64,000 nt of DNA, from contig QPMI01000496.1 in NCBI GenBank assembly GCA_004431415.1, positions 434,001-498,000 of the forward strand. The letters run 5' to 3'. The position numbers and the translations under genes were made by a program. Shown here in pieces: positions 3,001 to 37,572 of the stretch. The first letter of the stretch is position 1; the number at the start of each line of letters is the position of its first letter. The notes beneath the pieces were generated by a model that worked only from the letters and a program-made list of their open reading frames with translations, searched no databases and had not been told where the DNA came from. This DNA is from Cyanophora paradoxa CCMP329 (Eukaryota > Plantae > Glaucophyta).

Positions 3001-3269
3001 CCCGCGGGCAGATGCTGCCGCTGCTGAAGGAGCTGCAGCGCTTCTTCCGGAGCGCGAACGCGGAGGCGGCGGACGAGGCGGGGCGGGGCCTCCTCTCCGA
3101 GGCCGCCGCCTCCCTCGGCGACATCGCCGGCTTCTGCTGCGGCCCCCGCGACCGCCGCGCCCGCCCGGGCCCCGCCCGCGAGCGCTCCGCGTCCATCGCC
3201 CCCGCCGCCCCCTCGGCGCCGTTGGCGGCGTCGACGTCGACGTCGCTCCCGCGGGCCTCTCCCGTATAA
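1..3269 (+). CDS. 3' part of a multi-exon TmcB/TmcC-like (tiny macrocysts) membrane protein; 5' end lies outside the window
   Basis: Spliced exons read ...SIFRRMVLRYLTAF/AVLASLGCVGYGLCAWLINTSSE/...ALELAHAGLRYGN.../LLYGTPCLRGDGDC.../VLAVQLAAIALVFGLVFRPIIRQLREECGRSDELLRMLPKE. The TM + FRP..L..E..R...LL.MLP ending is typical of TmcB-like proteins. Stop at 3267-3269. Confidence 0.55.
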
Positions 3270-5770
3270 TCAACGGGTCTGTGTGATCGCATCGCACAGA
3301 TCTCGCGATCTCGCGCTGGAATTTTCCGATGTTTCGCCCAAAGCTTAAATTTATAATTAGCATCGATATCTGATTGTTACATTTCGGGGGTAGTTTTGCA
3401 TAGCTCGCGTCAGACCGCACTCGGTGCACGTGCTTCTCACAGTGAGTAGTGGCGCGCGGTACTTATTATTATTACATCCGGGCGTACCCGCATCCGGTAT
3501 TTATTGCAGATAGATGCGCGGCTAGCGCTGCAAGCGCTTCGAGTTCTACATGATTCCAGAACTCAAAGCTCTGTGCATGCATTTCCTAAATTCCATCCCT
3601 TTCATGACAAGTCCTTCATGACATGGCGTATTCTTTGCGTTACTTTAACTATATAGGCTAATAGATAGCATGAGTTATTCGTAATATCGATAGCGCACTG
3701 TGTGAGTCAGTGACGCCTGAGTTTGGCATGGCAGGAGATATCGATGTACATGTCAGTCGAGCTTGAAACTTTGAAATGCCTTGAATGTGCATATGCGCAC
3801 GCCGTGACGGGTGCATGCACATTATTGTTTTTGCTAAAGTGGACGTCGCATTGATACACCACGGCACATGTATCAATGTTCGGGTGCATGCACATTATAA
3901 TTAATATTGCACAGCCAGGTGACAGCTTTAAGGGCCACGGGCCAGGTTGCGGCAAGCTCTAGCCTTGCCAAGTTGTTGCAGGGCATTGTTGCAGAACTTG
4001 CGATTGCAGGCTGTGCACGTGCTAGCGCTGCCTGTGCAGCATCGCTGCATCAGACATGCTTGGTGACAACTTGGCAAGTACTGGACACTACTTGTTGAGA
4101 CACTACTACAGTCACAACTTCGACTCACAACAGTTAGCCTAAATATATGCTGCAATGCATACGTAGCTATAGGCTAGTATGTAAACTTAGGCACCAAGAC
4201 AATGCCATGGCAATTTTTTGAAGCACTCCCCCGGAGCCCCTCTAGATCTCCGTCGCCGTACGCGTGGAGTCTCATGATCGATGTCATGATTCGAATACTA
4301 CTAACTAGTACGTACTACGGTACTAGTATACATGTACACGATCACTACTAGTAGTCACTGAGTATACGTTCTTGAATTGATCATGATCATGATCATCGGA
4401 TCGTGAACAGGATCCGACGTCGACGGCGGCCCGGCGCCGCGGCCAGCCTGGCAGGCAGTGGCAGGCACTGCGGCACTGGCCATGGCAGCCTGTTCCCAGA
4501 TTCTGATCGAGAGTCTCATCCTGATTCCTGATCACATGACACAGTGACACTAGTACTGTACATGTGTGACAGACACTGACAGTCTGTCGAGTCTGCAAGC
4601 TGACAGACAGTGACATGTACAGTCCGACGGCCGCGGTCTTTGTAATCTTTTAACATTTCTACCTCCGGCCCCAGGCTACGGGGGGGCCGGCGGGGCTCGC
4701 CCCACCGTAGTCTCTAAAAACCTTCGTTCTCAGTGGAACTTCTCACCGTACTACGGCGTAGTCTCCCCACCGTAGTGACAGCGTAGTCCTTAGAGTTTTG
4801 TTCAGAATTTCGCCTCCTTTTTTTACTTTCTGAATTTCAATTCGTCTATTTTAGCCTTAAAAATTGCTTCCAATCCAAGCGCAAGAAAATGTCCAACATC
4901 CAATCAGGTTGACGTCGAGTCATTGAATCGTCATCAATTCGTCACGTTCGCCGAGTCGTCGAACTGGTTCCAGAGCTTTCGGGAATTCGGATAAGCCAGA
5001 TGCATATCATAGCATACTATGATATGCTGTAACGGATGACGCATGCGTACGGCCTTACGTACGGTTATTGCGGTGTCGCCGAGTCGGTCACACCGCCGGC
5101 CCGGCGCCACGCCACCGTGGCACCGCCGCGCGCGCGGCCGCGCGCGCGTCGCGCGGCCGACTCGCGCCGCCGACTCGTGCGGCTCGCCCGGGTCGCCCCC
5201 CAACTCCGCCGGCGCGTACGTATACGTACGCGTCGACTCTCAGCCCAGAGTCTCGGGGGGTAGGGCCTTCGCCGAGTCGTATTCGCGGCCGGGCGTGCAC
5301 GTGAGGGGCACTGAGGGGCCAGTGAGGGCACTAGTACTGCCAGGCTGCATGGAAGCGAGGTCGCGACCGGCCCGGGCAAGTTGGCAGCAACTGGCAGCTA
5401 GGCCCTAGGCTAGCGCTCTGCAATTGAGACTCTGAGAGCGCTCTAGATCTGCAACGGTGAGACCCAATATTAATTGCAAGCTCATCGCGCGCAATCGTGA
5501 GCCTTGCCAAGTTGAAGGCGCACGCAGCACCACCGCCGCCGAGTCGGCGCGGACAGGGCTCTGCGCGCCCGCTCTCTGAATTCGAAGTACTCGGCGGGAT
5601 CGGATCATCGAATGCACGCAGCTACAGTACTATAGCTAGTGGCGATGGGCCGAGACAGCTAATTATAAAGCGAGACGAGCTCGAGCCGCGGCCTCTTCGT
5701 ATGTACCTCCAAAGCAGTCGTTGCCCGCAGCGCCTTCGTCAGCGCTAACTACGGCCCCCATTTTCATGAG

Positions 5771-11700: not shown

Positions 11701-13629
11701 GTCGACGACCTCGCGCTCTGCGGCCCGCCGCCTTCCCGCCCTCCCCGCCCGCTCCGGCCCGCCGCGAGCGTCGCCCCGGCGCCGTGGGGGCCCGACGCCG
11801 CTCCTCTAGCTCGGTCGCGGCGCCGCGCGGCGCGGAGGAGGCGGCGCGGTGGCGCGCGGTGCGGGCTGGGGCGCTGCGGCACCTCGCCCTGGCGGAGAAT
11901 TTCTCGGGCGCGTTCGAGGCGGCCGGGCAGGCGGCCGAGGCCTGCGTCGCCTGCCTCGGCGAGCCCATGCCCCGCTCCCGCATCGGGCCCGCCGCCGCCC
12001 TCGGTCCGCCCTGCCCCGCCCGGCCCGCGGCCGCCCGCTCGACTCGGACGTAAATTAAAGTCCTCCTGATCATGACCCGCTGCGCATGCAGGAATCTACC
12101 TCCGCGCCCGGGGCGCGGCGCGGCGCGTGGGGAAGGCGGCGCGGCCCGGCTCCCACTGGCTGCACGCCCCGGAGAGCGAGGAGCAGCGCGGGGCGCTGCT
12201 CGACGCCTCCCTCATCCTGGGCTGGACCGGCCTGCTCAAGGTATTTAAAATAAGTGATTTATAGACCTTCGAATTCATATTTGATCGTTCCTCTGTCCTG
12301 TAGGAGGCCTTCGGCGGACGCGGCGGGCTGCCGTGGGTCGCCCTCGCACTTCTTCGCGCCTACGAAATTTCCGGTGTGCATGCACGCTCCGCTTAAGATT
12401 CATTTCTGACCGATTGCTCGTTCAATGCTTGTCCGGACCGGACCCCTTCTAGTCTCATCCCCTGGGCGCGCAGAGGGGACGCCGCGGGAACGCATCGGGG
12501 TCGCCGACTGCCGGTGAGACCGCAGCTCCCCCGGCCCCACCCTCGTCCGATCTCCCTCTCCCTGTGCTGATGCCAAGGCCGCTATCTGCAGCGTCTGGGC
12601 CAATTTCAGCAGCCTGCTGGACGGCATCGGATTTTCCGCGCAGGGCGCCGCTCTGCTCGCGCAGGTCCGACCGTCCCGCCCCCGCCCCCGCCCGTTCGAT
12701 CCGTGTGGTCTGCATCCGGGCGCGCGGCCGACCGTTCGTTGGGGACAGGCGCGGGAGCTGGCGGAGAGGCTGAACAACGACACGGCGAGGGCGGCAGTTG
12801 AGAACCACGCCGGAATGCAGGCCTGCAGGGTGGGAGACTTTGCCGAGGGCGCCCGCCGGTGCGCCCGCCGCGAAACCGATCCCCCGCGCGAAATCTAAAT
12901 TAACCGACGCGCGCAACTGCATTAAAATTGACGAATCTGCGCGAAAACGAAACCTGCGAGCTTCGGAAGCCACTAATCCTATGTCGGCGCGGCCCCGTGC
13001 AGATTCCGGGCGGCGGCAGGGCTGGCGAGCCCGCCGCCGAACAGCCACGAGCTGCTGGCGTCGGCGGCGATGTCGCTGCTGCTCGCCGGCGACCTCGCCG
13101 AGTCGCGCCGCTGCTGCGACGAGGCGGCCCTCTTCGCCTCGCGCTTCGGCGCCGACTCGTACGGAGCCTTCCTCGCCGCCCTCGTCGGCGCCCTCGCCGC
13201 CGCCTTCGCCGGCAGCGACGAGGCCGCCGCCGCCCTCCGCCGGGCCGAGCAGGTGCCCGCCTCGAGCTCGCACGCCCCATTGCTCGTTGCAGTCGCTGAG
13301 CAGGGGCGGCGCGCGGGCAGGGCGTGGGAGAGTACAAGGGAGTGCGGTGGTGGGTCCGGGAGCTGGTGCGCGCCGCGCAGTGCCTGCTTGCCTGGAGGGC
13401 CGGGCACGTGGGGGCCGCCCTCTCCCTCGCCGAGGCCTGCACCGCCACCTGGCGCGCCCAGCGCGCCACCTTCGGCTGGCTCGGCCTCCGTGCGCGCGGA
13501 ACTTCGCTGCGACGCCGCCCCGGCCGCTCTCGATCTGACCGCGCCGCCCTCGCCAGTGTTTCCGGCAGTTCTCGTCGAGTTCAGCATGTGGGCGCGGGCG
13601 AGGGCGCGGGCCGTGTGCGCGATCACGAG
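5771..13629 (+). CDS. Soluble adenylate cyclase (ADCY10)-like protein: two class III cyclase domains + STAND/AAA_16 NTPase + helical/TPR region; 5' portion, interrupted by the viral insertion
   Basis: Exonic cyclase motifs: LPYVP...ALFLD/VSGFSGLA, ILVF/AGDA, FGGSVNKILIDDK/GASAIIGFGLPGGFAHEDDAERAV, FCGTLGAPCRKEYAL/IGDSV/ILAARLM. NTPase motifs: Walker A EAEAGMGKT, Walker B LLLEDVHWMD, G/VPLFLVEL. Downstream STAND-type motifs: IVLARVDQLP, FSHGLL/RDAVY. Start codon tentative. Confidence 0.8.
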
Positions 13630-13870
13630 AAAAAATGGTAAAGTGGGGCTACTGTCACCACATCGATTAATTCCCAATATATCAAACAATCCCAATCAAA
13701 ATCCTCTCGATTCTCAGTCTTTACCAATCAGAATTCAACAAATTCTCAGTCTCTCAATCACAATTAATCGAAGTTATATCTTAAATTAATTAATCGAAGT
13801 TATATCTTAAATCTTATTTATCGAAGTTATATCATAATCTCGATTAATTATATTTAATCGAAGTTATATC
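13630..13870 (+). repeat. Left terminal inverted repeat (241 bp) with 4 direct copies of ATCGAAGTTATATC
   Basis: Begins AAAAAATGGTAAAGTGGGG and matches the reverse complement of 25212-25452 with no mismatch seen. Motif copies at 13767, 13793, 13820 and 13857. Confidence 0.95.
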
Positions 13871-13957
13871 CTTTTTATCCGCCGTGTCTCCCATGAATTA
13901 CAAAATTTGATTGCTTTTTTAACATGCTTAAAAGTTATTAAACACAAACATATACCA

Positions 13958-14143
13958 ATGGCTTGGGAAAAGCGCCAAAGAGATGTTAAGGAATGTGGAT
14001 GTCACACAGTATGGGAAGTCCATGATTTCTTTAATGATGAGAGGGAAATGTATCAAGTTTATTGTGAGAAACACAAGCCAATAACAAATAAAAAACAAAC
14101 CATTCACAGTAACCACACAAAACAAAACGTAAAATCTCAGTAA
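13958..14143 (+). CDS. Small viral protein (61 aa), possibly zinc-binding
   Basis: MAWEKRQRDVKECGCHTVW...YCEKH has CxCH and CxxH pairs. ATG is in an A-rich context, downstream of AAAATTTGA and TTAAAAG motifs. Confidence 0.5.
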   Translation: MAWEKRQRDVKECGCHTVWEVHDFFNDEREMYQVYCEKHKPITNKKQTIHSNHTKQNVKSQ

Positions 14144-14565
14144 GCCTCAGTAACAATTTAAAACCTCTAATTTTTTACTGTATTTTTTGAACGGTTTTTT
14201 ACTGTATTTTTTACACTAGAAACAACGATAGAAAAGACAATAAAAACAATAGAATTGTAATTGCTTTTTAATCGTATATACGTCACTATATCAATATAGT
14301 ATATACGATATATATCATAGAAAATCGATTTATGGTCATACCTATAACATATCTATTTGTGTATATGTGATATATATATATATATGACGTCATAATGACG
14401 ATGCATATGTATATAATATATATGACATACCACGTGACTCGGGAGATTATGACGATCACGGCGATGTGTATATTGTCATGATGTATATGTATATATATGT
14501 GTGACGCAATCTGATTGGCTCACTGACTTTCAATGTATCCCCCTTCAACTTCTCCCCAGGTTTCG

Positions 14566-14649
14566 ATGTGAGATAAAATGTGATATTAAATGTGAGATAA
14601 AATGTGATATTATATGTGAGATTCTATGTGAGATATAATGTGATATAAA
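14566..14649 (+). repeat. Tandem 12-bp repeat, 7 copies of ATGTGA(G/T)ATWHW
   Basis: Units: ATGTGAGATAAA, ATGTGATATTAA, ATGTGAGATAAA, ATGTGATATTAT, ATGTGAGATTCT, ATGTGAGATATA, ATGTGATATAAA. Confidence 0.9.
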
Positions 14650-14718
14650 AGTTATAAATTAAATGTTTACTTTGCTCAATTTCTATTGGTCCATGCCACA
14701 GAGTAGTGATTTTTCATT

Positions 14719-14790
14719 AAATGCGCCATAAATTGCGCCATAAAATGCACCATAAAATGCGCCATAAAATGCGCCATAAAATGCGCCATG
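14719..14790 (+). repeat. Tandem 12-bp repeat, 6 copies of AAATGCGCCATA
   Basis: Six near-identical units read directly from the sequence. Confidence 0.9.
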
Positions 14791-15035
14791 AAAACCCGGG
14801 GAATAAACCGTAGTAGGGTATATGATCTCACAAGGTTCAAGTTTCGCTCACGTTTCACCGAAGTTTCGGTAAATCGATTATCGGCATCTTCAAACGCTTG
14901 TATCTCACCACCAGATGGTCAACTCGCAACGTTTTGCATAGCGTTTTGAAGCGCTTGTTAAGCTCTACGCAACTACGTAATCATCGTATTATTTCAAGCT
15001 ACCTTGCCATACAATATTTCTCACAAATCGTCCTT

Positions 15036-15793
15036 TCACACACTGATTGTGGTCATTTCTCGTTGGATCCGAGCCATCTGACCCCTTTTAATTGCTTTTC
15101 TCTTCACAAACTTCTTAAAGCCCTTTATATCATCATCAGTTAGTACTGCTCTATCAGTATAGGTCTTGATATCATAACCTTGCAGGCTAGCTATGACAGT
15201 TTGGTAATTATAACCCATAGTCTATGCAATTCCTTGTAGGTCTTCTTATCCATTCCACCATTGTACTCATCAAAGGCGCAATTGAATTCCTTTTCATTCC
15301 CAAGTATATTGAAAAATACAACGAACTCCACATTACGACGAATGGTAGTAGAAATTGAGCATAAACGCTGAACATTAAATATCACAGAAATTGAATAATG
15401 GCGGCCGCTCGTGACCAATTTAGATAACACAGCCGAATTATGCATATCCAAATTGGAACCTATCATGTCATCGAGTATGATTACTAAGTTATTTCGTTTC
15501 TCATTGTTCTCGATTCGTTTCTTTTGCATACTGATCAATCTCAAAACAATGTTATCATCCCATTCCTCATAGATGTTATCTGGATGGGTGATGTCATTGA
15601 ATTGCCCAGTAAAAGCTGTTGAACTAAATATTACGATCTGATCGATCTTGTCACGAAGCTCGTAAAGTAAGTATTTTGTAAACATTGTCTTACCTGTATT
15701 GGAGCGACCAACATTTAAAATTCTCGTTGGGATTCGAACTGTCTTACTCGGATCGAACTCCGGAATATCATCTAAGTTTACTGTGTTATCCAT
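15036..15793 (-). CDS. A32-like (FtsK/HerA) genome-packaging ATPase, with one apparent 1-nt frameshift near 15220
   Basis: Walker A GRSNTGKT, Walker B VIILDD, SGRHYSISVIFNVQ and IRRN motifs in ORF 15191-15793. The C-terminus continues as TMGYNYQTVIA... in ORF 15036-15218. Confidence 0.9.
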
Positions 15794-15874
15794 TACAGTA
15801 ATAACATAAAAAACAAAATAAACTGCTCACCTACTTAATTTCTGAGCTTCCTACTCTAACGAAAGAAAAGAACT

Positions 15875-17100
15875 TTAGAAGTTCGAGACTTTCAGGGTAG
15901 AGATGTTGTAGCCATTGAGGACCATAACATTGTGTCGCAGGGCATAGATATCAACCTGAACAGGAGCAGCATCAGTGCATCCCGAAACAGTGAGATCCAT
16001 GTAACTCGAGCTGCTGTTGAAGAAATCCTGGTAACCCATAACCGAGTTCCGAAGCGAATCTTTTCCGGACTTGGAAAGAACAATTCCATAAACATTTCCA
16101 GACTCGAATCCGTAGGTGGTATTGCCCACAGTAACACCCTTGTAATGAGAGGGAATGTGATTGACAGCAGAGAGGAAACCGGAAATGGGTTTGTTAGAGA
16201 TATCAAGGGAGCGATTGTTGTGGAAGATCTGGAACTGATCGATTTTAACATCCGAAACATGACCACAGAAATCAGAATGAGTGTAGGTGTTGAGTTTGTT
16301 CACCTCTCGAACAGTCATGAGAATCGAATGAACCAGACCGGAAACATTAGCAAGTGTAACCTCGACCGATTCACCAGCATCAGCAGTTTTAAGCGCTCGG
16401 GTCTTCTTGTGGATGACCTCTGTGATCGGGATGCGAATGCCACCTTGTTCGTTTGCCATCTTTAGGAGTGTCTCAGCCTCAGCCGAAGCGATGTTTACGA
16501 ATTGGCAGATCAGGGAGCAATCCGCAAAGGTAACAGATCCACCGGCAGGAACTTTGACTATCCAGCATCACGGAAATCCACCTCAATCGTTGGCATATCC
16601 GCCAGCGTACATAATGGAAAGTAAGCATCATCCCAGAAAGCAGCGGGGATTTTAACAATGTATTCCATAGCCTCATCTGTGCTTTCACGATCAAGTTCTT
16701 TGAAGTAACCGAGAGAAGCATACATGCTGCCCATAGTAGCATGATCATTATCGATTAGGGCGTTTACAGTGATCCAATCACCAGGGATGATATACTTGAA
16801 ACCACCATGAACGAAGCGGACCTCATTAATAAAGGAAGAACCACCATTGGGGAGGGTGCAGGCTACCTCACCACCAGTGACAATCTTGAAATAGAGCGAA
16901 ACACCAGCAAGGAGTTGCTTGCGAGGTAGATCAAAGTAAGCGGTATTCTTAAAGCCAAAAGTATTGCCTCGGGGGCGAACTTGCTCGAGGAATGGTTTGT
17001 ACTTGGGGTTGGTTCCGATTTGGAGACCAGGGGATAGATAAATTTGATCGGAACCGGGAGTTACGAGGAGTTCCTTAAGGGTAGTTCCAGTGAGTGCCAT
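15875..17100 (-). CDS. Major capsid protein (double jelly roll, about 408 aa), split by a 1-nt frameshift near 16560
   Basis: N-half has DQIYL...FGFKNTAYFDLPRKQLL...FINEVRF...IPAAFW...FPLCTL...IEVDF. C-half ends VDIYALRHNVMVLNG. Adding one base at GATGCTGG^ATAGTC joins ORFs 16558-17100 and 15875-16459 through an open linker IVKVPAGGSVTFADCSLICQFVNI. Flanked by the ATPase and penton genes. Confidence 0.8.
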
Positions 17101-17152
17101 CTCTTATGTTTAAAATACCAAAAGAAATTTTTAAAATGCTTTATTAAACAGA

Positions 17153-18052
17153 ATGACGCGTCATTACCTTAATATTGATTCTCGGGATCGGGATGATGGA
17201 ACCCCAACAAACTTCACTTACAAAATTCCCCATGCAATCCAAAATGTGAGGGCATGCAGAGTGACCAATTTCGAGATGTTCAATAACATTTACAATCTCA
17301 GCGAGAATGGAAGTTTGATTACAGGAACCTATGATGCTGGGGATGTAATTAAAACTAAGAATAACACTATTTCAAAAGGGACATATACTTCGGATAGTTT
17401 GGTGAATCTTCTAAATGCAAAACTTGCTTCACAAGTGTATGGTGCAGCAGGAACTACCTATACTCGCCATTTTCATGTAACCTATGATCCTGTTACCATG
17501 TTTCTAAGGTTCATGTGCGATGCAACATTTACCCTCTCCTTTGGAAGTCGGATCTTAGCGAACTTCCTTGGTTTCCCAGATCGCAGACCTGACAGTTCTG
17601 AAAATGGTTATGCTTCTGCCCTGCTCGATTCGCCAGTAACAGTTGGAGCAAATACTTATAATTACTACATTGACAGTGTTATACCACTCGATCTTCTGTT
17701 CAATTCTTACATCCTTCTTCATGTTGACCCACTCAAAGGCAACTATGTAAGCAAGAACACCAGCGATGATAAAGCCCTTGCAAAAATTGAGATTGACCAA
17801 ACGGTAGGCAGTCTACTAAAATACGATTCATCGAATAATTCCATGATATTGCATGAGCAAAATGGTTTGGTGGAAGTTGAAACGCTAAAAGTTCGTCTCA
17901 CATACTGGAATGGTGTTGAAACTGATATTACTACAGATTGGTCGATGACTCTCGAACTGATTACTGAAGATGATAAAGATCTGACGAAGAAAGCATTGAA
18001 GAATGTCATAAAAGAGTTGGAGGGACTCTACCTGCCGTTCTCACGGTCATAG
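17153..18052 (+). CDS. Minor capsid (penton) protein, single jelly roll
   Basis: LNIDSRDR...NF.Y......NV, NIYNL, KGTYT, LANFLGF, YILLHVD, ALAKI and LKVRLTYWNG...DWSMTLEL, the motif pattern of PLV/virophage/NCLDV pentons. Divergent from the MCP gene across 52 bp. Confidence 0.85.
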   Translation: MTRHYLNIDSRDRDDGTPTNFTYKIPHAIQNVRACRVTNFEMFNNIYNLSENGSLITGTYDAGDVIKTKNNTISKGTYTSDSLVNLLNAKLASQVYGAAGTTYTRHFHVTYDPVTMFLRFMCDATFTLSFGSRILANFLGFPDRRPDSSENGYASALLDSPVTVGANTYNYYIDSVIPLDLLFNSYILLHVDPLKGNYVSKNTSDDKALAKIEIDQTVGSLLKYDSSNNSMILHEQNGLVEVETLKVRLTYWNGVETDITTDWSMTLELITEDDKDLTKKALKNVIKELEGLYLPFSRS

Positions 18053-18088
18053 GAAATACTGTAGAATAAATTTGTCTCGATATTACAA

Positions 18089-18873
18089 ATGGCTCGCAAG
18101 ACTCAGCCCAAGAATTTCTTAGCCAAACCAGTTGAGCAAGCAGAACCAGAACGGAAACAGTTTAAGAAATCGAAAGGAACCGCAGCATACGGAACTGGTG
18201 ATCTCGATAAAAATGTCCACCAGACCATGAATGCTCACACAATTGCGCTTACTTCAAACTCAAATGATGATAATGCCCTGGTTGACCAAGTCCCACTGAA
18301 CCGCATGCCCGGAGCGAAACGAGGAATCAAGAAAGGGCAGTTCAAATCATCCACGAAGGACAAGGTTGCCTCATCATCGACACTGCTGAAACTGCTTGAT
18401 GGTGGTGAGAGACTCTACTCAACCTATTCCGAGAAAGACCATCGCAACCGCTACTTTATTCGTTCAACCACTGGTGGACTGAAATCTGTGACATATCAGT
18501 ATGCTAAGAGTCTTGTTGATGGTATTGCAGCAGAGACCAAAAACGAAAACAAGATCAAGGAACAGCCAATCACAAAGGAGAAGGTTGAGAAGAAACCAGA
18601 GGTAACCATGAAGTAATCCCTGAACCTGTTCATGTCGCAAAAGACTCACCAACAGAACTGATTGCAAAGACAATCGATTACCAAGACTCCAACAAAACGG
18701 ATTTGCCGGTTCTCAATAAATCGATCCTCCGGGTTGCCACTTCGCAGGCTGATCCAGTCAACTCGATTCCAAATGCTGCCCAATGGTCTCAGGGTTTGCA
18801 AAGCTTGGTATTAGACCCGGTTATCGCCGTTAAGGATCATTTCAGAATTTTTAAAAATCTTGAACATTGTTAG
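18089..18873 (+). CDS. Lys-rich viral protein of unknown function (candidate core/structural protein); probably extends past a 1-nt frameshift near 18607
   Basis: 175-aa ORF to 18616. An overlapping frame HEVIPEPVHVAKD...FKNLEHC* stays open to 18873. Confidence 0.6.
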
Positions 18874-19183
18874 CGCTACGTAACCAATCTTATCCCGTAG
18901 GCTCAAAACTTCTTCATTTTTATGGAGGCGTTGTAGAGCGAAGTGAAAATATCCATAGGTAAATCACTTTAATCACCTGTTCTACCGGGTTCAGTGGTAG
19001 AAACTTGCAGCCGACAAGTGAGCCTATTTGGTTTCGGTGGCTTTATCATTTTTCCAGCATCTTCTTTCGTACTGGATGCTCTGCAATCGGACCAAAATTT
19101 GACAGGAGTTTAATCGCTATATACAGACAGAAAAACTACTTAAAGATTTCTTAACATATATTAAGAGAGTAGAAAAGGACAAA

Positions 19184-19441
19184 ATGCCAATCAGTGAGGC
19201 TCAGAAGCGTGCTACTTATCGTTATCGTAAAAGTGAAAAAGGTCAGGAATATTTAAAAAAGTATAATGCGAAATTCGCAAAGCAAATGCGTGATTTATAC
19301 CATACTGATGAGTGTTACAGAGCCATGAGAATCGTTGAGAGTTCCCAGCGTCTCTATGCTTCCAATGCAGTCTGCTTTGTGAAGTATCTCTATGGTGTCC
19401 CGTATTCTAACCGTGGTCGCAAATCGAAATATCTCTGTTAA
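19184..19441 (+). CDS. Small basic viral protein (85 aa), putative DNA-binding
   Basis: N-terminus MPISEAQKRATYRYRK resembles the S.AQKRA..(K/R)Y start of small viral and phage proteins. Good ATG context. Confidence 0.65.
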   Translation: MPISEAQKRATYRYRKSEKGQEYLKKYNAKFAKQMRDLYHTDECYRAMRIVESSQRLYASNAVCFVKYLYGVPYSNRGRKSKYLC

Positions 19442-19682
19442 TTGTTTTTCTCAGCGCGATCTGCTCTGAGAAACCCGTGGGAACCGCGCTGGAACCACAA
19501 ATAAAATCATTCTGTTATTTTTAGAGTTCGATGATCGAGCCAACCCTTTGTTATTTTTATGAATGCCCTCGACTAAATTTATTTTGTTGGAGACTTTTGG
19601 TTTTGTCGGTAAAATTTGACGCGAGTATAAAAGTATTTAAAGAAAACTTTTGTAGGTATATATTAATAGAGTGAACAAAGAA

Positions 19683-22600
19683 ATGCCTCGACCAAGTAAT
19701 CGGATTTCGAAGAATTTGCAGGATGAGATTCTTGGTTACTACATGCAAGCAAAAGTAGAAGACAAATTGACCCGAGAGCAGGATATCTATTTCTTGAGAG
19801 AATTTACTTTCAAAGCAATTAGAATTCCAAAGTTGATTGATATCAGAGATACACTGAGAGGTATCGTAGAGCCTCGTTTGTATCGCAAGCAGGAGAAGAA
19901 GGAAGCCAGAGCGGAGAGGGCTGCAAAGAATGTTGCAAAACGGCAAGCAAAGACCAAAGAAGTGCAGAAATACAAAAGAAATCAGCAGAAGAAGGCCAAG
20001 AAGCAAGAGAGGGTTCAAAAATGGAAGTCAAAGCAGGAAGCCAACCAGGTTCAGGTAATGAATGCCATGAATCACCTAGTCGAAGAGATTACATGGAAAA
20101 ACGCTAAGAAAAACCTAATTAACACAATCCATCGGTTTATCACTGAGAAGATAGGATGGGATGATCTCCACAGAAGACTTCAAGAGGCTTTGGACAGACA
20201 CAATGGAATTAAGTTCCAGTTCAAAGTGAAGGCCAATTACAAATACAAGGAGAAGCAAAATGGAAGGTGGACAGGAGAGTACCAATACGCAACCAGATAT
20301 CCAAGCTCAATGCAGTTTTACCTAGTTCTTCCAGCAAATGACCTAACGGATATCGTAAGGCAAGCTGTGGATGATCTGCATGAAATCATGACAGCCATTG
20401 AGTATGCAGAGGTTCACAATATTCTCGAAGTAACCCTACAAATTCTATCTTACACACCTCTGACAGGAAGTTCTTACATTCCTCTTCCAGAAGAGATTGA
20501 AAAGAGAAAGGCTGTTATCAATCCTAAGAATGAAGACCAAGAATGTTTCCGACATGCTGTTAAGATTGGCTTGCATCACAATGATGTCATTCGAAACCAC
20601 AGATCTGAATTGAAACGATACAGTAAGTGGGACAAGGAATTTGATTGGAGTCGCTTTGAGTTCCCAGTCAAGAATGATTCTAGAGTTTACGATCTAGCTT
20701 CAAAGATGATTGGTAGACCTATCAATGTCTACTTCCTTGATAACAAGAAACGAGTCTTCCCTATCCATGTGAACAAGAACCCAGCAGAGCAGCACAAGAC
20801 CATTGACCTTTTGATGTGGAGTGATGGGGAGAACACCCATTATGGCTTCATTTCAAGTCTATCGAGACTCATTCCAAGCTCACACAAGGAAACGAAGTAT
20901 TTCTGTAAATGCTGCTTGAAGGGATTTACAGGTCAAAGGATCCTCGATAATCACATTAGACTAAGCAGATGCTATGAACGACCAACAGCAACTATTGATG
21001 TGATGCCTGAAGCAGGAAGCTGTATTATGTGGGATCCACAGAGAAATGCAGACAAAACAGTTTGGCATCCGATGTTTGCAGTTGCTGATTTCGAGTGTCT
21101 CCTGAAATCTGTTGAAAGTGTTGTGACTCGTGTTGATGAGAAAGGTGTTAAATACGATTCAAATAATAACGAGATCAACACCGAAATTTACCAAAAGCAC
21201 ATCCCTTGCGCTTACAAAATCATGATCATGCATAAGGACAAGATCCTAAGAGAAGTCCTCTACCAGAAACAAGATCCAAACAACGATGATGAGGTAATCA
21301 ATCATTTCATGACAACTCTCAAAAATATGGAGGCTGAGTTGCTTGAAAAGGTGAGAGAGGTCGAGCCAATAAAGATGGATCGATATGACAAAATGAATTT
21401 CAAAGAAGCCACATGCTGCTACATTTGCGAGGATCAATTCGTTAAATATGGAGAAGAGGGTAAGGTTTTCATTACAAAGAAAGTCAGGGATCATGATCAT
21501 ACCACAGGTAAATATCTTGGGGCTGCCTGTGATAAATGCAACCTGAGAAGAAGGGTTAACCCTAAAATTCCTGTTATATTCCACAATCTGAAAGGGTATG
21601 ATGGACACTACATTCTAAAAGCTCTCGGTGAGCATGCAGACCCAGGAAAAGAGATCCGCTGTATCGCTGAGAATTTCGAGAAGTTCAAGTGTTTCGACTT
21701 TAACAGCTACAAATTCGTTGATTCCCTGAATTTCATGCAAGAAAGTCTTGACAAACTTGCTAGTAATCTCGGTCACAGAGACAACTATAAATACACCAAT
21801 GAATGGTGTGACCAGCATACAATTACGGAGACCCAAAGAGAACTCCTGATGAGGAAGGGATTCTTCCCTTATGATTACTTGGATTGCCTTGATAGACTCA
21901 GCGAAACTAAACTTCCCAGCAAAGAGGCTTTCTTCTCAAAGCTTAATGATCGTGAAATTAGCGACAGTGACTACAAGCATTGTCAGAAGGTGTGGGATGC
22001 ATTTGATTGCAAGACACTTGGAGATTACATGAAGATCTACCTTGAAACTGATGTGTTCCTTCTCGCTGATGTGTTTGGTCACAATTTCCGACAGAGATGC
22101 TATAAAGATTATGGACTTGATCCTATCCATTTCATTTCAGCTCCACACCTCAGTTGGAATGCTATGTTGAAACTTACGAAGGTTGTTCTCGAAAACATTG
22201 ATGATGATGAAATGTATCGTATGTTCGAGCTTGGAATTCGTGGTGGAATATCGATGATAGCTACGCGGAATGCTCAGGCTAACAATCCATACATGAAGAA
22301 CTTTGATCCAACAAAGCCAATAAAATACATCATCACATGGGATGCCAACAATTTGTATGGATTTGCTATGTGTCAAAAGTTACCTATTGGTGATTTTGAA
22401 TGGATCGATAACGTTGAAGACTTTGATTACATGAAATTTGATGCTGATGGTGAAACTGGGGCATTATTGGAGGTTGATTTGGAGTATCCAGATCATTTGC
22501 ATGATGAGCATAGCGATTACCCACTAGCACCTGAATCTATGGTAGTAACTGAGGACATGTTATCACCTTCCCAACTTGAAATGCTTGGTGAAGAAAAGCT

Positions 22601-23681
22601 TCCTGGAAACCGAAAGTTGGTACCCAATCTGAACAACAAACACAACTACGTTCTTCACATCAAGAATCTGCAATACTATGTATCAAAGGGTATGATTGTG
22701 AAGAAGATCCATCGAGGGATTGAATTCAAACAATCGGCTTGGTTGAAACCTTACATTGATTTCAATACTGAGAAAAGGAAGCAGGCACAAAATGATTTCG
22801 ATAAGGATTTCTACAAGCTCATGAATAATTCGGTGTATGGAAAAACCATGGAGAATGTCCGGAATCGTAGCAACATCAAACTCTGCCACAACCCAGAGAA
22901 GCAGGCGAAACTGAATGCAAACCCTCTACTGAAAAAGGTTAAGATCATCACCGAGAACCTGACAGCAGTTGAAATGTATCGTGGAACTATTCTTCTCGAT
23001 AAACCAATCTATGTTGGTCAGGCGATCCTTGATTTATCAAAACTTGTCATGTATCAGTTCCACTACGATTACATTCGCAAGAAGTATGGATCGAAAGCCA
23101 AACTCCTCATGACTGACACAGATTCGCTGTATTACATTATTGAGACCGAGGATCTATACAAGGATATGAACTCTGACTCTCATTTGTTCGATCAATCGGA
23201 ATACAGTCCTTCTCACATTTGCTACAATCCTCAAAATAAAAAGGTTCCTGGTTTATTCAAGGATGATGCCGGTGATTTGGTTGTAACTGACTTTGCAGGA
23301 TACAAACCAAAGGCCTACTCTTATTTGAAGGATTTGAATGTCAAGGCTCTTGGTTCGGAAGAAGATGTGAAAAAGGTGATTGCTAAAAGGTTGAAGGATA
23401 GTGGGAAAAGTTCAGAAGAAGATGTAAAGAAAGATACTGTAAAGAGGTTGAAGGGAATCCAGAGATGTGTAGTTAAAAACAAATTAGAGTATAAGCATTT
23501 CTATGATACTGTCATGGGGCAAGAGCAGGATCCTGTTACAGTTAGAGGAATTCGTTCAAAGAACCACGAGGTATCAACACTTGAAATGAAAAAGAGGGCA
23601 TTCAATGCGCTTGATACCAAGAGGTATCTTTGCGAGGATAAGGTGAATACTCTTGCAATTGGGCATTACAGAACTCGCTAA
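19683..23681 (+). CDS. polB: Protein-primed family B DNA polymerase polyprotein (1332 aa): putative terminal protein, OTU-like protease domain, C2H2 finger, exonuclease with Endo VII-like insert, polymerase
   Basis: Exo I ADFEC, Exo II FHNLKGYDGH, Exo III YLETDV; Pol A DANNLYG, Pol B KLMNNSVYGK, Pol C TDTDS. Also NPKNEDQECF...THY, CKCCLKGF.....LDNH, and CYIC...VRDHDHTTGKYLGAACDKCN. Frame is uninterrupted. Confidence 0.97.
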   Translation: MPRPSNRISKNLQDEILGYYMQAKVEDKLTREQDIYFLREFTFKAIRIPKLIDIRDTLRGIVEPRLYRKQEKKEARAERAAKNVAKRQAKTKEVQKYKRNQQKKAKKQERVQKWKSKQEANQVQVMNAMNHLVEEITWKNAKKNLINTIHRFITEKIGWDDLHRRLQEALDRHNGIKFQFKVKANYKYKEKQNGRWTGEYQYATRYPSSMQFYLVLPANDLTDIVRQAVDDLHEIMTAIEYAEVHNILEVTLQILSYTPLTGSSYIPLPEEIEKRKAVINPKNEDQECFRHAVKIGLHHNDVIRNHRSELKRYSKWDKEFDWSRFEFPVKNDSRVYDLASKMIGRPINVYFLDNKKRVFPIHVNKNPAEQHKTIDLLMWSDGENTHYGFISSLSRLIPSSHKETKYFCKCCLKGFTGQRILDNHIRLSRCYERPTATIDVMPEAGSCIMWDPQRNADKTVWHPMFAVADFECLLKSVESVVTRVDEKGVKYDSNNNEINTEIYQKHIPCAYKIMIMHKDKILREVLYQKQDPNNDDEVINHFMTTLKNMEAELLEKVREVEPIKMDRYDKMNFKEATCCYICEDQFVKYGEEGKVFITKKVRDHDHTTGKYLGAACDKCNLRRRVNPKIPVIFHNLKGYDGHYILKALGEHADPGKEIRCIAENFEKFKCFDFNSYKFVDSLNFMQESLDKLASNLGHRDNYKYTNEWCDQHTITETQRELLMRKGFFPYDYLDCLDRLSETKLPSKEAFFSKLNDREISDSDYKHCQKVWDAFDCKTLGDYMKIYLETDVFLLADVFGHNFRQRCYKDYGLDPIHFISAPHLSWNAMLKLTKVVLENIDDDEMYRMFELGIRGGISMIATRNAQANNPYMKNFDPTKPIKYIITWDANNLYGFAMCQKLPIGDFEWIDNVEDFDYMKFDADGETGALLEVDLEYPDHLHDEHSDYPLAPESMVVTEDMLSPSQLEMLGEEKLPGNRKLVPNLNNKHNYVLHIKNLQYYVSKGMIVKKIHRGIEFKQSAWLKPYIDFNTEKRKQAQNDFDKDFYKLMNNSVYGKTMENVRNRSNIKLCHNPEKQAKLNANPLLKKVKIITENLTAVEMYRGTILLDKPIYVGQAILDLSKLVMYQFHYDYIRKKYGSKAKLLMTDTDSLYYIIETEDLYKDMNSDSHLFDQSEYSPSHICYNPQNKKVPGLFKDDAGDLVVTDFAGYKPKAYSYLKDLNVKALGSEEDVKKVIAKRLKDSGKSSEEDVKKDTVKRLKGIQRCVVKNKLEYKHFYDTVMGQEQDPVTVRGIRSKNHEVSTLEMKKRAFNALDTKRYLCEDKVNTLAIGHYRTR

Positions 23682-23713
23682 GGTTAGGTTAAAGAAATTG
23701 ATTGCTTATTGTA

Positions 23714-24794
23714 ATGGAGCAGGTATTGAGCTATACAAAATATAGACAAAAGCTAATCAATGAGGGTGTAAAGTTTGATGAGGATGAATTGAAAAAGAGA
23801 TTTAAAAACAGTGAATTGAATCAGATTTTCAAGAAGCCTACCAAGCCGAAATCGTTTCTTAGAATCGTAGCCCACCCAATTCTTTTCAGGTTGATATTAT
23901 ATATTTCAAGGATTATAAGACAGCAAACTATGGTGTGGATCGCATGCTAGTATTCGTAGATATTTTGAGTAGGAAGGGTTTTATATTTCCTTTCAAAATG
24001 GTCACTGGGAAGGAGAAGAACGATGAGAAGAAGATTGAGATTCTAAACAAATTTAAAAGCCAAGCTGGAACAGTCCAAGCTCTTTCCGGAGATAAGGAGT
24101 TTTCAGGGAATATTTACAAGAAATGGTGTGAGGATAATGGTGTGGTTTTATACACAGACATTGCCAAAGATGACCACATTACAGTTGGGGATAAACTCGG
24201 AATAGTTGATAGGTTCACAAGAACAATCAAGCAGTATTTAAGGAAGGCTATAAAGTCAACTGGGAACTCGAAGTGGACTGAATTTTATGAAGATGTGCTG
24301 GCGACTTACAATAACAGTCCACACAGTTCACTGAAGAATGATTCTCCAAATGCTGTGTATGGAAATAAAGAAAAGGAAACGTATGTTTACTTTCGTGATT
24401 CACTGCATAATAAGCATGTGAGAGAGGGATTACCAAAAGTGCAAGAAGGAGATTATGTGAGGGCTGTGAATCCAAAGGGAGTTTTCGAGAAAGAGGGTGC
24501 AAGGTTCAGTGAGAAAGTGTTTAAGGTGGCTGGTAAAGTTCAGAATAAATACAAACTTTTGGAGGATAATGAAGGTGAAACAGTTCGTGAAGTTCGAAGA
24601 AAATTCAAAATAAATGAGTTGCAAAAAGTAGATAAAGAGGCTGTCGTAAAGATACCAACCAAAAGAGAGTTGAGAGGGTAAAGAAAACCACAAATGTGAA
24701 TCGAGTGGTTTCCCAAAAAGAAGGAATAAAACCAAATCGTAAGAAAGTAGTTAGAAAGAGATATAATTTGAGAAGTGGATTAACTAAACGTTAA
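23714..24794 (+). CDS. Retroviral-type (rve) integrase with two apparent 1-nt frameshifts (near 23877 and 24664)
   Basis: Repaired frame reads HPNSFQVDII...MLVFVDILSRK...SGDKEF...IVDRFTRTIK...YNNSPHSSL...P, then an SH3-like GDYVR...FEK...FSEKVFKV and a basic tail ending RYNLRSGLTKR*. That stop overlaps the stop of the convergent gene in TTAA at 24791-24794. Consistent with the 6-bp TSD. Confidence 0.9.
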
Positions 24795-25153
24795 GCTCTA
24801 ATATCAGATCCATCATCTGATTCAATAAATCTTGTAACTGGTTTGAATCTTTGAAATACATCTTTGTGGTGAATTCCTTTTACATACCACCCTTTGTTTA
24901 CAGGATCCCATCTGAGTCCCATACACTTTGCATCGAAATTATCTTTAAATTGAACTTTGCAGTAGATCTTTTCATTTCTGTATTTAATTTCTTTTTCATT
25001 GATCGTTTGGAATTCTTTCAGTAAATCACTATTTGCATCTTCTGTATACCAAAGTTTCATTTCATAATCCCATTTTGCTCCTTTCTCTTTTGCGATTTTT
25101 CGATCATTGTAATCACAATCAAAGTAAAACTTCTTAATTGTATTTGTCTCCAT
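24791..25153 (-). CDS. Tandem DUF5710-like domain protein (120 aa)
   Basis: Two copies of the Y..V.F.D...AK..G.RWD...K.WY pattern: FYFDCDYNDRKIAKEKGAKWDYEMKLWY and IYCKVQFKDNFDAKCMGLRWDPVNKGWY. Confidence 0.8.
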   Translation of the reverse strand: METNTIKKFYFDCDYNDRKIAKEKGAKWDYEMKLWYTEDANSDLLKEFQTINEKEIKYRNEKIYCKVQFKDNFDAKCMGLRWDPVNKGWYVKGIHHKDVFQRFKPVTRFIESDDGSDIRA

Positions 25154-25211
25154 TTTATTCAGATTATCATATTATTTTTATATGAAACAATCAATGAGGA
25201 TATAACAATCA

Positions 25212-25452
25212 GATATAACTTCGATTAAATATAATTAATCGAGATTATGATATAACTTCGATAAATAAGATTTAAGATATAACTTCGATTAATTAATTTA
25301 AGATATAACTTCGATTAATTGTGATTGAGAGACTGAGAATTTGTTGAATTCTGATTGGTAAAGACTGAGAATCGAGAGGATTTTGATTGGGATTGTTTGA
25401 TATATTGGGAATTAATCGATGTGGTGACAGTAGCCCCACTTTACCATTTTTT
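25212..25452 (-). repeat. Right terminal inverted repeat (241 bp)
   Basis: Ends CCCCACTTTACCATTTTTT; reverse complement of 13630-13870. Confidence 0.95.
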
Positions 25453-26000
25453 CACGAGCGAAGAGGGGCGCCGCTGGGGCCCCGGCCGCGGGCCGATCCT
25501 CTGCTGGCGGCGGGCGCCGCGGCGGCCCTCCGGCTCCGGCTCCGTGGCCCCGACAGAAAGCAGCGAGCTTGACCTGGCGGGAGGCAGCGCCGCCGGCGCC
25601 GGCGCCGGCGCCGGCTGGCCCCGCCGGAGGAGGCGGCGGGGGCGCTGCGGCGAGCGGAGCGACTGGCGGAGGGCGTGCAGGCGCTGCTGGAGGAGACGTG
25701 CCGGAAGCGGCTGCCGGCCCTCGCCCCTTTGTCGAGCTCGCGCGGGCCGAGCGGCCGGGCCTGGCCCCGCGCCGCCGCCTCGCCCGCCTCCGCGCCGCCG
25801 CGGACGGGTTCGCGCGCCTCGGCCTGCGCCCCTTCGAGATCGCGGCGCGCCTCCGCCTGGCGCGGGCCGAGCCCGACCCGGCGGCCGCCTCCGCGGCCCT
25901 CGCGGCGGCCGGCCGCCTCGCCTCGGAGACGGGCGTGCGGGTGCCGGCTTTGGGGCGCCCCGCCCCGCTCCCGGGCGAGTTCGAGGCGACCTGGGTCTGA
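25453..26000 (+). CDS. 3' end of the same cyclase-STAND-TPR gene, separated from its 5' part by the viral insertion
   Basis: Removing the element and one TSD restores an open frame AVCAIT-SEEGRRWGPG. The terminal frame ...ELARAERPGL...GEFEATWV* ends at 26000. Contains apparent 1-nt indels. Confidence 0.65.
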
Positions 26001-31083: not shown

Positions 31084-34000
31084 TTATTGAGTCCGCCCCA
31101 AGTCTGCCAGCGCCTGCCGAACAACCGAAGTCGTCGGGTGCTGTGGCCCCAGGGTCCGCTCGAGCACCGACAGCGCCCCCTGCGAGTTGCAATGATGCCT
31201 CAGTAGGCGCCGATCGCGAATATCGGCGAATGTTTGACTTGCGCACCTCCGTCAGCGCCACCGCCTCGGAGTGTGCCTCCCTCGTCCCCAGCTTCGCGAG
31301 GAGGTCCCCCAGGCACGCCATCGTGTATGCCGTGTCCGGGTGCTCCGCCCCAAGCGCCCGCTCACGCACCCGCAGCGCCTCCTGCGATCACGTGGGGCGC
31401 GATCGATATCGCGGGGGATCGCGATCGATTTATTAATTATGATCATGAAAGCTAACGCCGCGAACTCGAAGCTCGTTGCACCTCGAACATGGGACGCGCC
31501 GCCGCGTAGTCGCCCTGGGAAGTAAGCAGAATCGCAAGGTTCTGCGCCGTCGCTGCAACGCTCGGGTGCTCCGGTCCAAGCGCGTTCCTGCGCAGCCGCA
31601 GCGCCTCCTGCAGAGAAGCGGAGCTGAGCGACGAATCCAACGCGCCGGGCAACTCATATTGGAAGAAGCGTAAGGCGCGCCCCGCACCTCGAGCAACGGC
31701 CGCGCTGCAGCGTAGTCGCCCTGTCCAGACAGCACGCCCGCAAGGTTCTGCATCGCCATTGCAACGTCGAGGTGCTCCGGCCCCAGCGCTTTCTTGTACA
31801 CCGAAAGTGCCTCCTGCGCATGCGAATTCGAAATGCATCGTTGGAATTTCGCAGACACACGGCGGCCTAGGGCGCATGAATATTCGGCACCTCGAACATG
31901 CGTCGCGCTGCAACTTTGTCGCCCTTAGCTTGCAGCAGCACCGCCAGATCTTGCGTTGTTGATGCAACGCTTGGATGCTCCGGCCCCAGCACCTTTCGGT
32001 AGACCCGCAGCGCCTCCTGCGGCGCGCGAGAATCAGAGCTGGAGTTGGAACGTGCCAGAAACGAGGAGATGCTTTAATTTCACCTCATACATCGGCCGCG
32101 CCGCTTCGTAGTCTCCCTGATCGGACAGCACGCCTGCAAGGTTATGCATCGCCATTGCAACGTCGGGGTGCTCCGACCCCAGCGCCTTCCGGTAAATACG
32201 CAGCGCTTCCTGCAATGGCCCGGGGCGGGATCGGAACCGCGGGAGCCGAAGTCGTACCGAGAAGGCAGCCGGTGCCGTTTCGCACCTCCAGCGTGTGTCG
32301 CGCCGCCTCGTAGTCGCCCTGACCCCTCAGGACGCCCGCCAAATTCTGCATCGTTGTCGCGACGTTCGGATGATCCCGTCCCAGCGCTTTCTCACGCAGC
32401 CGCAGCGCCTCCTGCGAGAAATACAATCGAATTCAAAGCCCCACAACAATTGCAAGAGCCCGCGACAAAGTCCGATCCCCGGAGAACATTTAAGCTTCGA
32501 GAAGCACGCTGCACCTCGAACAATGCGCGTGCTGCCTCGTATTCATCCTGGGCCATAAGCAGGCTGGCCAAATCTCCCACCGCCCCTGCGGCCTCCACGT
32601 GCTCCGGCCCCAGCACCTTCTTGTATACGCGCAGCGCCTCCTGCGATTGCGAGGGGCGGGGCTGGATCGGAACCCAGAAGCCGGGCGACGTTACAGCTAA
32701 ACATTGAGACTTACTTCGAGCATTCGCTTCGCTTCGCCGTATTCTCCAAATTCGGTGAGCAGACCGGCAAGGTTCTGTGTTGTCCGTGCCACGTCGGGGT
32801 GGTCCGGCCCCAGCGCCTTCTTGCGCACCCGCAGCGCCTCCTGCAACGCGCACGTGTATACGTACGTACGATCGGGATCAGATTTGGAATGGACGGGTCG
32901 GGCTCAAAACGGGTGCAGCATGCGCACCTCGTACATGGACCGCGCCTCTGCAAAGTTGCCCTGGGCCTTCAGCATAGCTGCCAGATTCTGCGCGGTCGTC
33001 GCGACGTGGGGATGCTCTGGCCCCAGAGCTTTTTTATAGACGCGCAGCGCCTCCTGAACATGTGACGGTCGCGATTAGAAACGTAATTAAATGATAAGAG
33101 GCGAAAGGGTGCCTGGGAAACACGACACGTTTCGCACCTCGTACATTGTCCGTGCCGTCGCAAAGTCACCCTGCTCGGCCAGAAGATTTGCCAGATTCTG
33201 CGTAGTCATCACGACGTCGAGGTGTTCCGGCCCCAGCGCCTTCTTGCGCAGCCGCAGCGCCTCCTGAGGCGGACCCGGGCCGGGTTCAGCAGCTGCCAAA
33301 TCATGGATAAAGTGCGAAAGACACCTCATACATCGGCAGAGCCGCTGCGAATTCGCCTTTGGCCTTCAGCAGAATCGCCAGGTTCTGCGTAGTTTTCGCA
33401 ATCTCAGCGTGCTCCGGCCCCAGCGCCTTCTTGTACACGCGCAGGGCTGCCTGCACGCGGCGACGTTAGATCTCGCGCGCACGCGGAGAATAACGATTCG
33501 CAGCGGACCTGAAGGAACGGGATGCCATCGGCAGAGCGTCCCATCACATGCAGCAGCCAGCCGGCCATGCTCAGAGCGTGGGGGTTCGCGTTGCCGCTCC
33601 CCACCTCGAGCTTAGCAGCACCGCATGCTGGGCTCGCGATCGTGTGCGTTCGCATGGCCAGTCCGACGGTCGACGCGTACGACTCTATATTTTAGGATCC
33701 GAAGAAATAGAGACGCACAGGCGAAAGAGAGCGTTGTCCTTGTCATCGGCAGGGGCGAGCTTAGAGAAAGCAGACCACGAGCCCCAGGAAGTCGTGCCAG
33801 AACAGCGTCCAAGTGAGCTGGCTCGGCCCGCCGGCGGCGTCCACGCCGACGAAGGCCTTCAGCTCGTCCTCTGCCATCCCGTGCCGCGCGCACACGACGG
33901 CAGAGGCGGCGTCCCGCACGAGCGCCGACCCGTGGCGCGAGGCGAGGCGGCGCAGGACGAGGCGGAAGAGGTCGCGCGGGCCGCCCCCGCAGCCAAGGAA

Positions 34001-36945: not shown

Positions 36946-37331
36946 CGGCGAGCAGCTGCAGCTCCTTTGGCACTCCCGCGGCCGGCAAGCAAGTTGAAGC
37001 AACTACGCCGCTGCTGCTGGCACTGCCTGGCAGTCCACTGGGCCAGATGAGACTGGATCTGGGGATTCTAGATCTGGGCAGACATCGACTGGGCTACGCG
37101 CACATGTGCATGCATGATGCATCATGGCATGTGTAGTAGTCATTGTGTACACTGTACATGTCATGATATCGATATACTATGATGATATGCGGGCAGCAGC
37201 CGCTGCCAGGCGCTGACTCACACAGTGTCAGAGTCAGTGAGCGGTGCCACACAGGCCCACACTGCCACCGTGCCAGCGCCGCGCCGCCTGCGCCGGCGCC
37301 GGCCCAGCCTGGCAGCGCCGCCAAATTAATA

Positions 37332-37572
37332 CTGTAAAACGAGAAATGTCCGGCGTCACTTTATTTCGGCAAAACCTGAAAAATGCGCCGGAACTGTGGT
37401 TCATCGGCATCATATTTTCGGCAACACAGCCAGTCCGCCTAGGTGACGGGTACATTGATCCTTCTTTCGCCATACATTTGCACAGTTCTGGCAGTTTCAA
37501 GTATTCGGCACCGCGAGGCTATGCCGAAAAGCGCCGAATATTAAGTGCCGCCGGACATTTCTCGTTTTACAG
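37332..37572. mobile_element. Tc1/mariner-type MITE (241 bp) with TA target duplication
   Basis: TA|CTGTAAAACGAGAAATGTCCGGCG...CGCCGGACATTTCTCGTTTTACAG|TA. The TIR is perfect for 24 bp and extends imperfectly to about 40 bp. No coding capacity. Confidence 0.88.

Follow-up and report, generated by a model that had tools for sequence, protein, structure and literature searches.

Two fragmentary reading frames at 15875-17100 of the window (the whole 64,000-nucleotide stretch of DNA analysed here) raise the question whether they are parts of one major capsid protein (MCP) gene, to what kind of virus this gene belongs, and how close it is to the capsids of giant viruses. A first, sequence-only reading had proposed a hidden, giant-virus-like capsid on a Polinton-type module.

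One capsid gene in two frames

Passing from frame P0001 to frame P0002 (Table 1) needs a one-base backward shift, giving 179 + 1 + 228 = 408 codons. The sequence-only reading had seen ORF fragments only and had estimated approximately 408 aa after the addition of one base: the two frames do lie where it placed them, the four peptides that it quoted are all located within them, and the frame repair that it proposed near 16560 yields, when run, a 408-codon gene. P0005, an unbroken protein of 456 aa labelled Cyanophora paradoxa, is matched by the two halves one after the other (pairwise, P0001 to residues 11-187, E 5e-15, and P0002 to residues 233-448, E 6e-11), and in a published sibling a single frame runs through the junction, a separate break following further on; the halves are therefore parts of one gene. 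By profile homology, Atlas features and the published HHpred match of a sibling, detailed below, this gene is identified as a double jelly-roll MCP gene.

The family is divergent and known so far solely from Cyanophora paradoxa. When P0001 is searched against 1.84 billion representative proteins, two matches are obtained, P0005 and P0004; the latter, a 5280-aa repeat protein and the top phmmer match, was discarded, its similarity being carried only by 23 short stretches. Word-based searches for longer relatives give none among 1305 candidates for P0001, and P0005 itself only among 7997 scored for P0005. Close relatives of P0001 were not found by scanning viral contigs or metagenome contigs either.

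The family was nevertheless catalogued in 2023, and the capsid is thus not as hidden as had been claimed. In the accessible part of the supplement of Bellas et al. 2023 (PMC10120064), Table S2 lists at least six C. paradoxa capsids of the same family, whose best HHpred matches are ascovirus, iridovirus and other NCV capsids. One of them is roughly 97% identical to the window capsid (by-eye count, 5 differences over 179 residues of P0001 and 3 over 119 of P0002), and HHpred gives an ascovirus capsid as its best match (probability 97.19, E 1.8e-6); P0005 is itself listed in a further row, with an iridovirus capsid (probability 98.47). Table S4 counts 366 capsid hits in the C. paradoxa genome, in two clusters (272 + 94), both placed under 'Iterative HMM searches' and left without a group name, and the accessible main text has no occurrence of 'Cyanophora'. 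In the available portions of two other papers, contigs of C. paradoxa are noted to encode adintovirus-like proteins (Starrett et al.), and a PLV from this species is mentioned (Bulzu et al.) (other papers, cited from accessible portions: PMC8502044, PMC12220804, PMC4028283 and 10.64898/2026.10.13.758929). Judged from these relatives, the host is likely a glaucophyte. No description of the full anatomy of this element was found in a literature search that covered few subscription papers.

An integrated Polinton-like element

The capsid gene lies on an island of 11,823 bp (13630-25452), with a GC content of 0.39 versus 0.68 in the flanks, bounded by terminal inverted repeats and a target site duplication (Table 1); four subrepeats of about 26 bp are found inside the left terminal repeat. 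With these marks of integration, and with an A32-like packaging ATPase, the element is, as judged from its sequence, an integrated Polinton-like virus in the broad sense. As the terminal repeats are identical, its insertion is recent.

Table 1. Features of the integrated element, in window coordinates
Feature	Positions	Strand	Remarks
Left target site duplication copy	13624..13629	.	6 bp; identical hexamer at 25453-25458
Left terminal inverted repeat	13630..13870	.	241 bp; 100% complementary to 25212-25452
Two arrays of 12-bp tandem units (families D1, D2)	14566..14798	.	Within a long non-coding stretch
A32-like packaging ATPase	15036..15793	-	Pfam Pox_A32, E 6.9e-16; one-base break near 15213
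MCP, C-terminal frame (P0002)	15875..16567	-	230 aa; start codon absent
MCP, N-terminal frame (P0001)	16558..17100	-	180 aa
299-aa ORF, candidate penton (minor capsid)	17153..18052	+	Head-to-head with MCP gene
Unannotated gene	18089..19113	+	175-aa ORF; broken frame; right end approximate
85-aa basic ORF	19184..19441	+	No family below E 0.08 (Pfam, PHROG)
Protein-primed PolB (pPolB)	19683..23681	+	1332 aa; DNA_pol_B_2, E 3.3e-17
rve-like integrase	23714..24681	+	Two frames, split near 23870
120-aa protein	24791..25153	-	Two DUF5710 stretches, E 3.4e-15
Right terminal inverted repeat	25212..25452	.	241 bp; zero mismatches to left copy
Right target site duplication copy	25453..25458	.	Matches 13624-13629 hexamer

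The element carries both a pPolB and an rve integrase, the pair that marks Maverick-Polintons (Polintoviricetes). With the 14 best viral-contig PolBs listed, the PolB shares 34-39% identity; in a quick tree, it forms a long branch outside any well-supported group. An Endonuclease_7-like stretch lies within it (residues 563-621, 21369-21545; E 8.4e-5, just under the Pfam cut-off). The integrase has only a weak Pfam match (rve_3, E 0.031) and is 34% identical over 256 aa (E 3e-40) to a protein of locus L170 that itself matches Pfam rve (4.7e-13); at 23413-24599, sibling contigs are longer by 30 letters. Related pPolBs (loci L142, L150, L161, L170, L174, L177, L182, L183, L184 and L186) adjoin at least two confirmed capsid types, Maverick-type and virophage-type, and two presumed other ones. 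Close relatives of the element ATPase, PolB and P0003 were not found by scanning viral contigs. One large viral contig has an A32-like ATPase with a Hint/homing-endonuclease intein inside (L136:12962-14839, the same protein being present in L137 and L138).

The 299-aa ORF has no Pfam or PHROG match, and its AlphaFold2 model (pLDDT 31.3) is too low to use. Its N-terminal motif is one that we take to be penton-type, and a viral-contig ORF with the same N-terminal motif matches DUF5901. From its position and this motif, the ORF is likely a minor capsid (penton) protein. The neighbouring gene at 18089..19113 differs from sibling contigs by indels at 18605, 18778, 18840, 18946 and 19088, and is probably a single longer ORF interrupted by several one-base differences. 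In the 12 element ORFs, no Pfam match is found to a protease, including an adenovirus-like cysteine protease (the broken gene at 18089-19100 being covered in its first frame only), nor to an HUH endonuclease, VLTF2/3 or another Mriya-type gene.

At 11.8 kb, the element is also smaller than the 14-40 kb given for PLVs. Around 14160-14800, about 0.9 kb without any long ORF contains AT-rich palindromes and the two 12-bp tandem arrays, and could possibly be a control region. In the host DNA, two GC-rich satellites are found at 40490-42780 and 43350-48850 (units of 160 bp and 139 bp), and a minus-strand gene at 31100-33500 has tetratricopeptide repeats spaced by about 200 bp, which are likely exon-intron repeats; 2 of the 28 host ORFs exceed Pfam cut-offs, both being of the TPR family, and these matches point to no particular host. 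A 37-bp inverted repeat pair at 37328-37576 (95% complementary, 175 bp between) is possibly a small non-autonomous transposon.

Known systems share part of this anatomy. Maverick-Polintons have, like the element, a pPolB and an rve-like integrase, terminal repeats, a 6-bp duplication, an A32 ATPase and a capsid, and the PolBs of Maverick-type contigs are 36-39% identical to its own; they are, however, 15-20 kb long, and in the element no cysteine protease is detected. The mavirus-like endogenous virophages of Cafeteria are, as here, AT-rich pPolB and rve elements in a GC-rich protist genome; Sputnik/mavirus-type capsid families are matched neither by the halves nor by P0005 (profile score 20.4), and no protease was found. 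According to the available text of PMC11253617, Mriyaviruses are likewise small dsDNA viruses with a double jelly-roll capsid and an A32 ATPase, but they are 35-45 kb long, lack a DNA polymerase and all have an HUH endonuclease, whereas the element has a pPolB and an integrase.

Likeness to NCV capsids

The likeness to NCV capsids was measured with a profile of 69 complete NCV-type capsids, chosen by a motif scan of viral contigs, and with two-row query profiles made of each capsid half and the corresponding part of P0005. The N half scores 51.7 over 167 columns and the C half 31.3, values reached by none of 60 column shuffles (best shuffles 19.8 and 26.0, respectively). The full-length score of the family is 65.7 (340 columns, probability 94.9). 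On the same profile, 10 pairs from 5 Maverick-type capsids (4 confirmed by Pfam, the fifth by clustering, a partial sequence being left out) score 15.0-39.5, one virophage-type pair 30.2, and the presumed PLV capsid groups X and Y, which are without Pfam confirmation, 20.1-24.6 and 20.8, in a control set that comprises no PgVV, TSV, GKS2, Trimcap, Zora, Zephyr or Mriya capsids. With Atlas features, 22 of the 30 hits of the N half are Capsid_N clusters. The alternative affinity, to Maverick or PLV capsids, that the sequence-only reading had wished to see checked does not appear on the Maverick side: the family does not match our own Maverick profile (17.6), and neither the halves nor P0005 match the Maverick capsid family DJR-like_dom (PF21738), which 5 control ORFs match at E 2.7e-41 or better; on the PLV side, groups X and Y are the only controls. 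In this one like-for-like test, the capsid family scores closer to NCV capsids than Mavericks do, which goes beyond what an ordinary likeness explains.

Several other methods do not recover this likeness. The Pfam Capsid_N and Capsid_NCLDV families, which the sequence-only reading had named for a check, are matched neither by either half (E up to 1) nor by P0005, and no capsid is matched in Pfam, PHROG or PDB by sequence searches with the halves, with P0005 or with an alignment of them. An HMM of the 69 NCV sequences, whose members score 440-770 bits, gives -0.8, 0.2 and -1.4 bits for the two halves and P0005, scores that 3, 7 and 2 of 200 shuffles also attain. NCV capsid HMMs (Nucleocytoviricota/Mriyaviricetes) thus do not find the capsid, and profile-profile comparison alone detects the likeness. 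In that comparison, the motifs pointed out by the sequence-only reading are in register with NCV capsids and above shuffles, but the fit is loose: four strict NCV patterns, present in 59, 66, 68 and 69 of the 69 reference capsids (the fourth being part of how these references were picked), are all absent from both halves and from P0005. When single sequences are compared, a Maverick capsid (32.2) outscores P0001 (28.7), P0005 (24.9) and P0002 (21.1), and with 12 shallow NCV pairs the family and Mavericks overlap without a gap (18.6-27.9 versus 17.4-30.0). Atlas recognition is low for both halves (1765 and 1735, below 2300), and the C half is equally close to NCV, Maverick and Sputnik-type clusters (0.96-0.97). 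AlphaFold2 on the 3-row capsid alignment gives a pLDDT of 35.8, which makes the Foldseek matches of this model meaningless; they were set aside.

Published comparisons put the likeness in proportion. Over the 19 rows counted in the accessible part of Table S2 (PMC10120064), from which 3 Cyanophora rows and 2 without hit were set aside, an NCV capsid is the best match in 12 of the 14 others, and 6 of these 14 exceed the probability of 97.19 obtained for the closest sibling. According to the available part of a 2014 study, Polinton capsids from Hydra and zebrafish match that of PBCV-1 at 97.5 and 97.8. An NCV best match being usual for Polinton-type capsids, animal ones included, the likeness had been overstated; and as the host is probably an alga, the animal Maverick hexon, beyond which the capsid had been said to resemble NCV capsids, is the wrong yardstick. 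Our results partly support the giant-virus likeness, which is real but weak, and common to many Polinton-type viruses.

The frame break, the capsid module and their meaning

The break sites were checked in short-read contigs of four runs from one organism (X1, X3, X5 and X9). All four runs have one extra base at 16561 or 16562; among the rows listed, it accounts for the entire depth in X1 (3470 of 3470) and X3 (3275 of 3275), for about 90% in X5 (about 3020 of 3147-3399) and for 74% in X9 (2450 of 3322). At the ATPase break near 15213, an extra base is likewise present in sibling contigs of 4/4 runs, and several breaks in the gene at 18089..19113 behave as those of the capsid and ATPase do. 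The added C or G falls at a run of that base at all five of the sites 15213, 16561, 18605, 18778 and 19088; the second variant at 16562 and site 16696 lie outside runs of the added base. In other protist elements, such breaks are described as assembly artefacts in the accessible text of Bellas et al. 2023 (PMC10120064), and that of the capsid gene is probably a one-base assembly error.

This copy could alternatively be truly decayed: it would be a dead insertion in which mutations have actually broken the capsid, ATPase, integrase and 18089..19113 genes. No fewer than four genes are affected, and as contigs drop rare variants, a deletion private to one copy would look like an assembly error. 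An assembly error is nevertheless favoured, because the terminal repeats are 100% identical and the 4-kb polymerase frame is unbroken; furthermore, each of the five listed breaks is one base short at a run of C or G, and the capsid gene is explained without any in-frame stop, so that we consider decay quite improbable. A functional split, in which a programmed -1 frameshift or a small intron would join the capsid halves, could draw on four GT..AG spans of the right phase near the junction. It is hardly tenable and nearly refuted, since sibling copies keep one continuous frame; each candidate intron would moreover delete residues that are retained in the published sibling, and the adjoining genes carry breaks of the same kind.

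In 4/4 runs, the capsid side of the element (14900-19860) is several-fold deeper than the polymerase side (19870-24800), with a step at about 19.9 kb, where the polymerase gene starts; in X1, single contigs have depths of 2466 and 1644 on the capsid side versus 437 on the polymerase side, short-read contig depth not being equivalent to copy number. The capsid module thus appears to occur in more elements than this pPolB-integrase pair does, and one capsid module with differing replication genes is a pattern described for these viruses generally, as far as the available sources go. One possibility is that the capsid module comes from a separate NCV-related lineage, like the Zora, Zephyr and Alpensee viruses, joined to a Polinton-type pPolB-integrase module. 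The depth step is what would be expected for swapped modules, and the full-length profile score above all Maverick, virophage and X/Y controls, the unmatched Maverick profile and the Capsid_N clusters of the N half all point in this direction. Yet the Pfam NCV families are unmatched, the NCV HMM stays at shuffle level, a single Maverick capsid outscores the family, the shallow pairs leave no gap to Mavericks, no HUH, VLTF or other Mriya-type gene is annotated, and the profile score was compared to controls without PgVV, TSV, GKS2, Trimcap or Mriya capsids. According to the available text of 10.64898/2026.06.19.733378, Zora (VC102), Zephyr, VC40 and Alpensee/GKS2 combine, like the element, a small genome and an NCV-leaning capsid, and some members also have an integrase or a pPolB; however, VC40 capsids match an NCLDV HMM at 3e-25 whereas the window capsid is at shuffle level on a different HMM, and no Mriya48 or HUH gene is annotated in the element. 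That available text has no occurrence of 'Cyanophora'; a small integrating element with a giant-virus-like capsid is thus a notion already published there. We therefore hold a separate NCV-related origin to be unlikely. As for the giant-virus-like capsid on a Polinton module announced by the sequence-only reading, the pPolB-integrase element and the profile score are in its favour, but the likeness is far weaker than that of NCV-like PLVs.

Our preferred explanation, to which we give a probability of about 0.7, is that the two frames form one double jelly-roll MCP gene, that this gene belongs to an 11.8-kb Polinton-like virus integrated in what is likely a glaucophyte host, and that it is likely intact in the cell, its split being a likely one-base assembly error. 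Its faint NCV sequence likeness is retained by a divergent capsid family, as in many Polinton-type capsids, and a large family of sibling copies accompanies the element. Going by Polinton biology, the integrase would join the linear ends to host DNA and thereby create the 6-bp duplication; the linear DNA, once excised, would be copied in the nucleus by pPolB, starting from the terminal repeats; and the A32 ATPase would fill a particle made of capsid trimers and the predicted penton. As it has no transcription genes, the element would depend either on the nucleus of its host or on a giant virus.

These results provide the complete layout of an unusually small and recently inserted element whose capsid family had been counted, but left unnamed, in 2023, and they illustrate how one-base assembly slips conceal capsid genes from gene callers. 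A more far-reaching proposal, which we regard as doubtful, is that of a glaucophyte-restricted, minimal (<12 kb, protease-free) integrating lineage, with an NCV-side capsid and a Polinton-type polymerase and integrase, in which one capsid module sits on several replication modules. If true, this would be a present-day case of the intermediate form that has been postulated for the origin of giant viruses. Such combinations are known from metagenomes, according to the accessible literature, and what would be gained is thus mainly a tractable host, and less a new concept: should a tree group the capsid with those of NCV-related PLVs, a giant-virus-side capsid on a pPolB-integrase element would be available in a cultured host, where it could be tested for particles.
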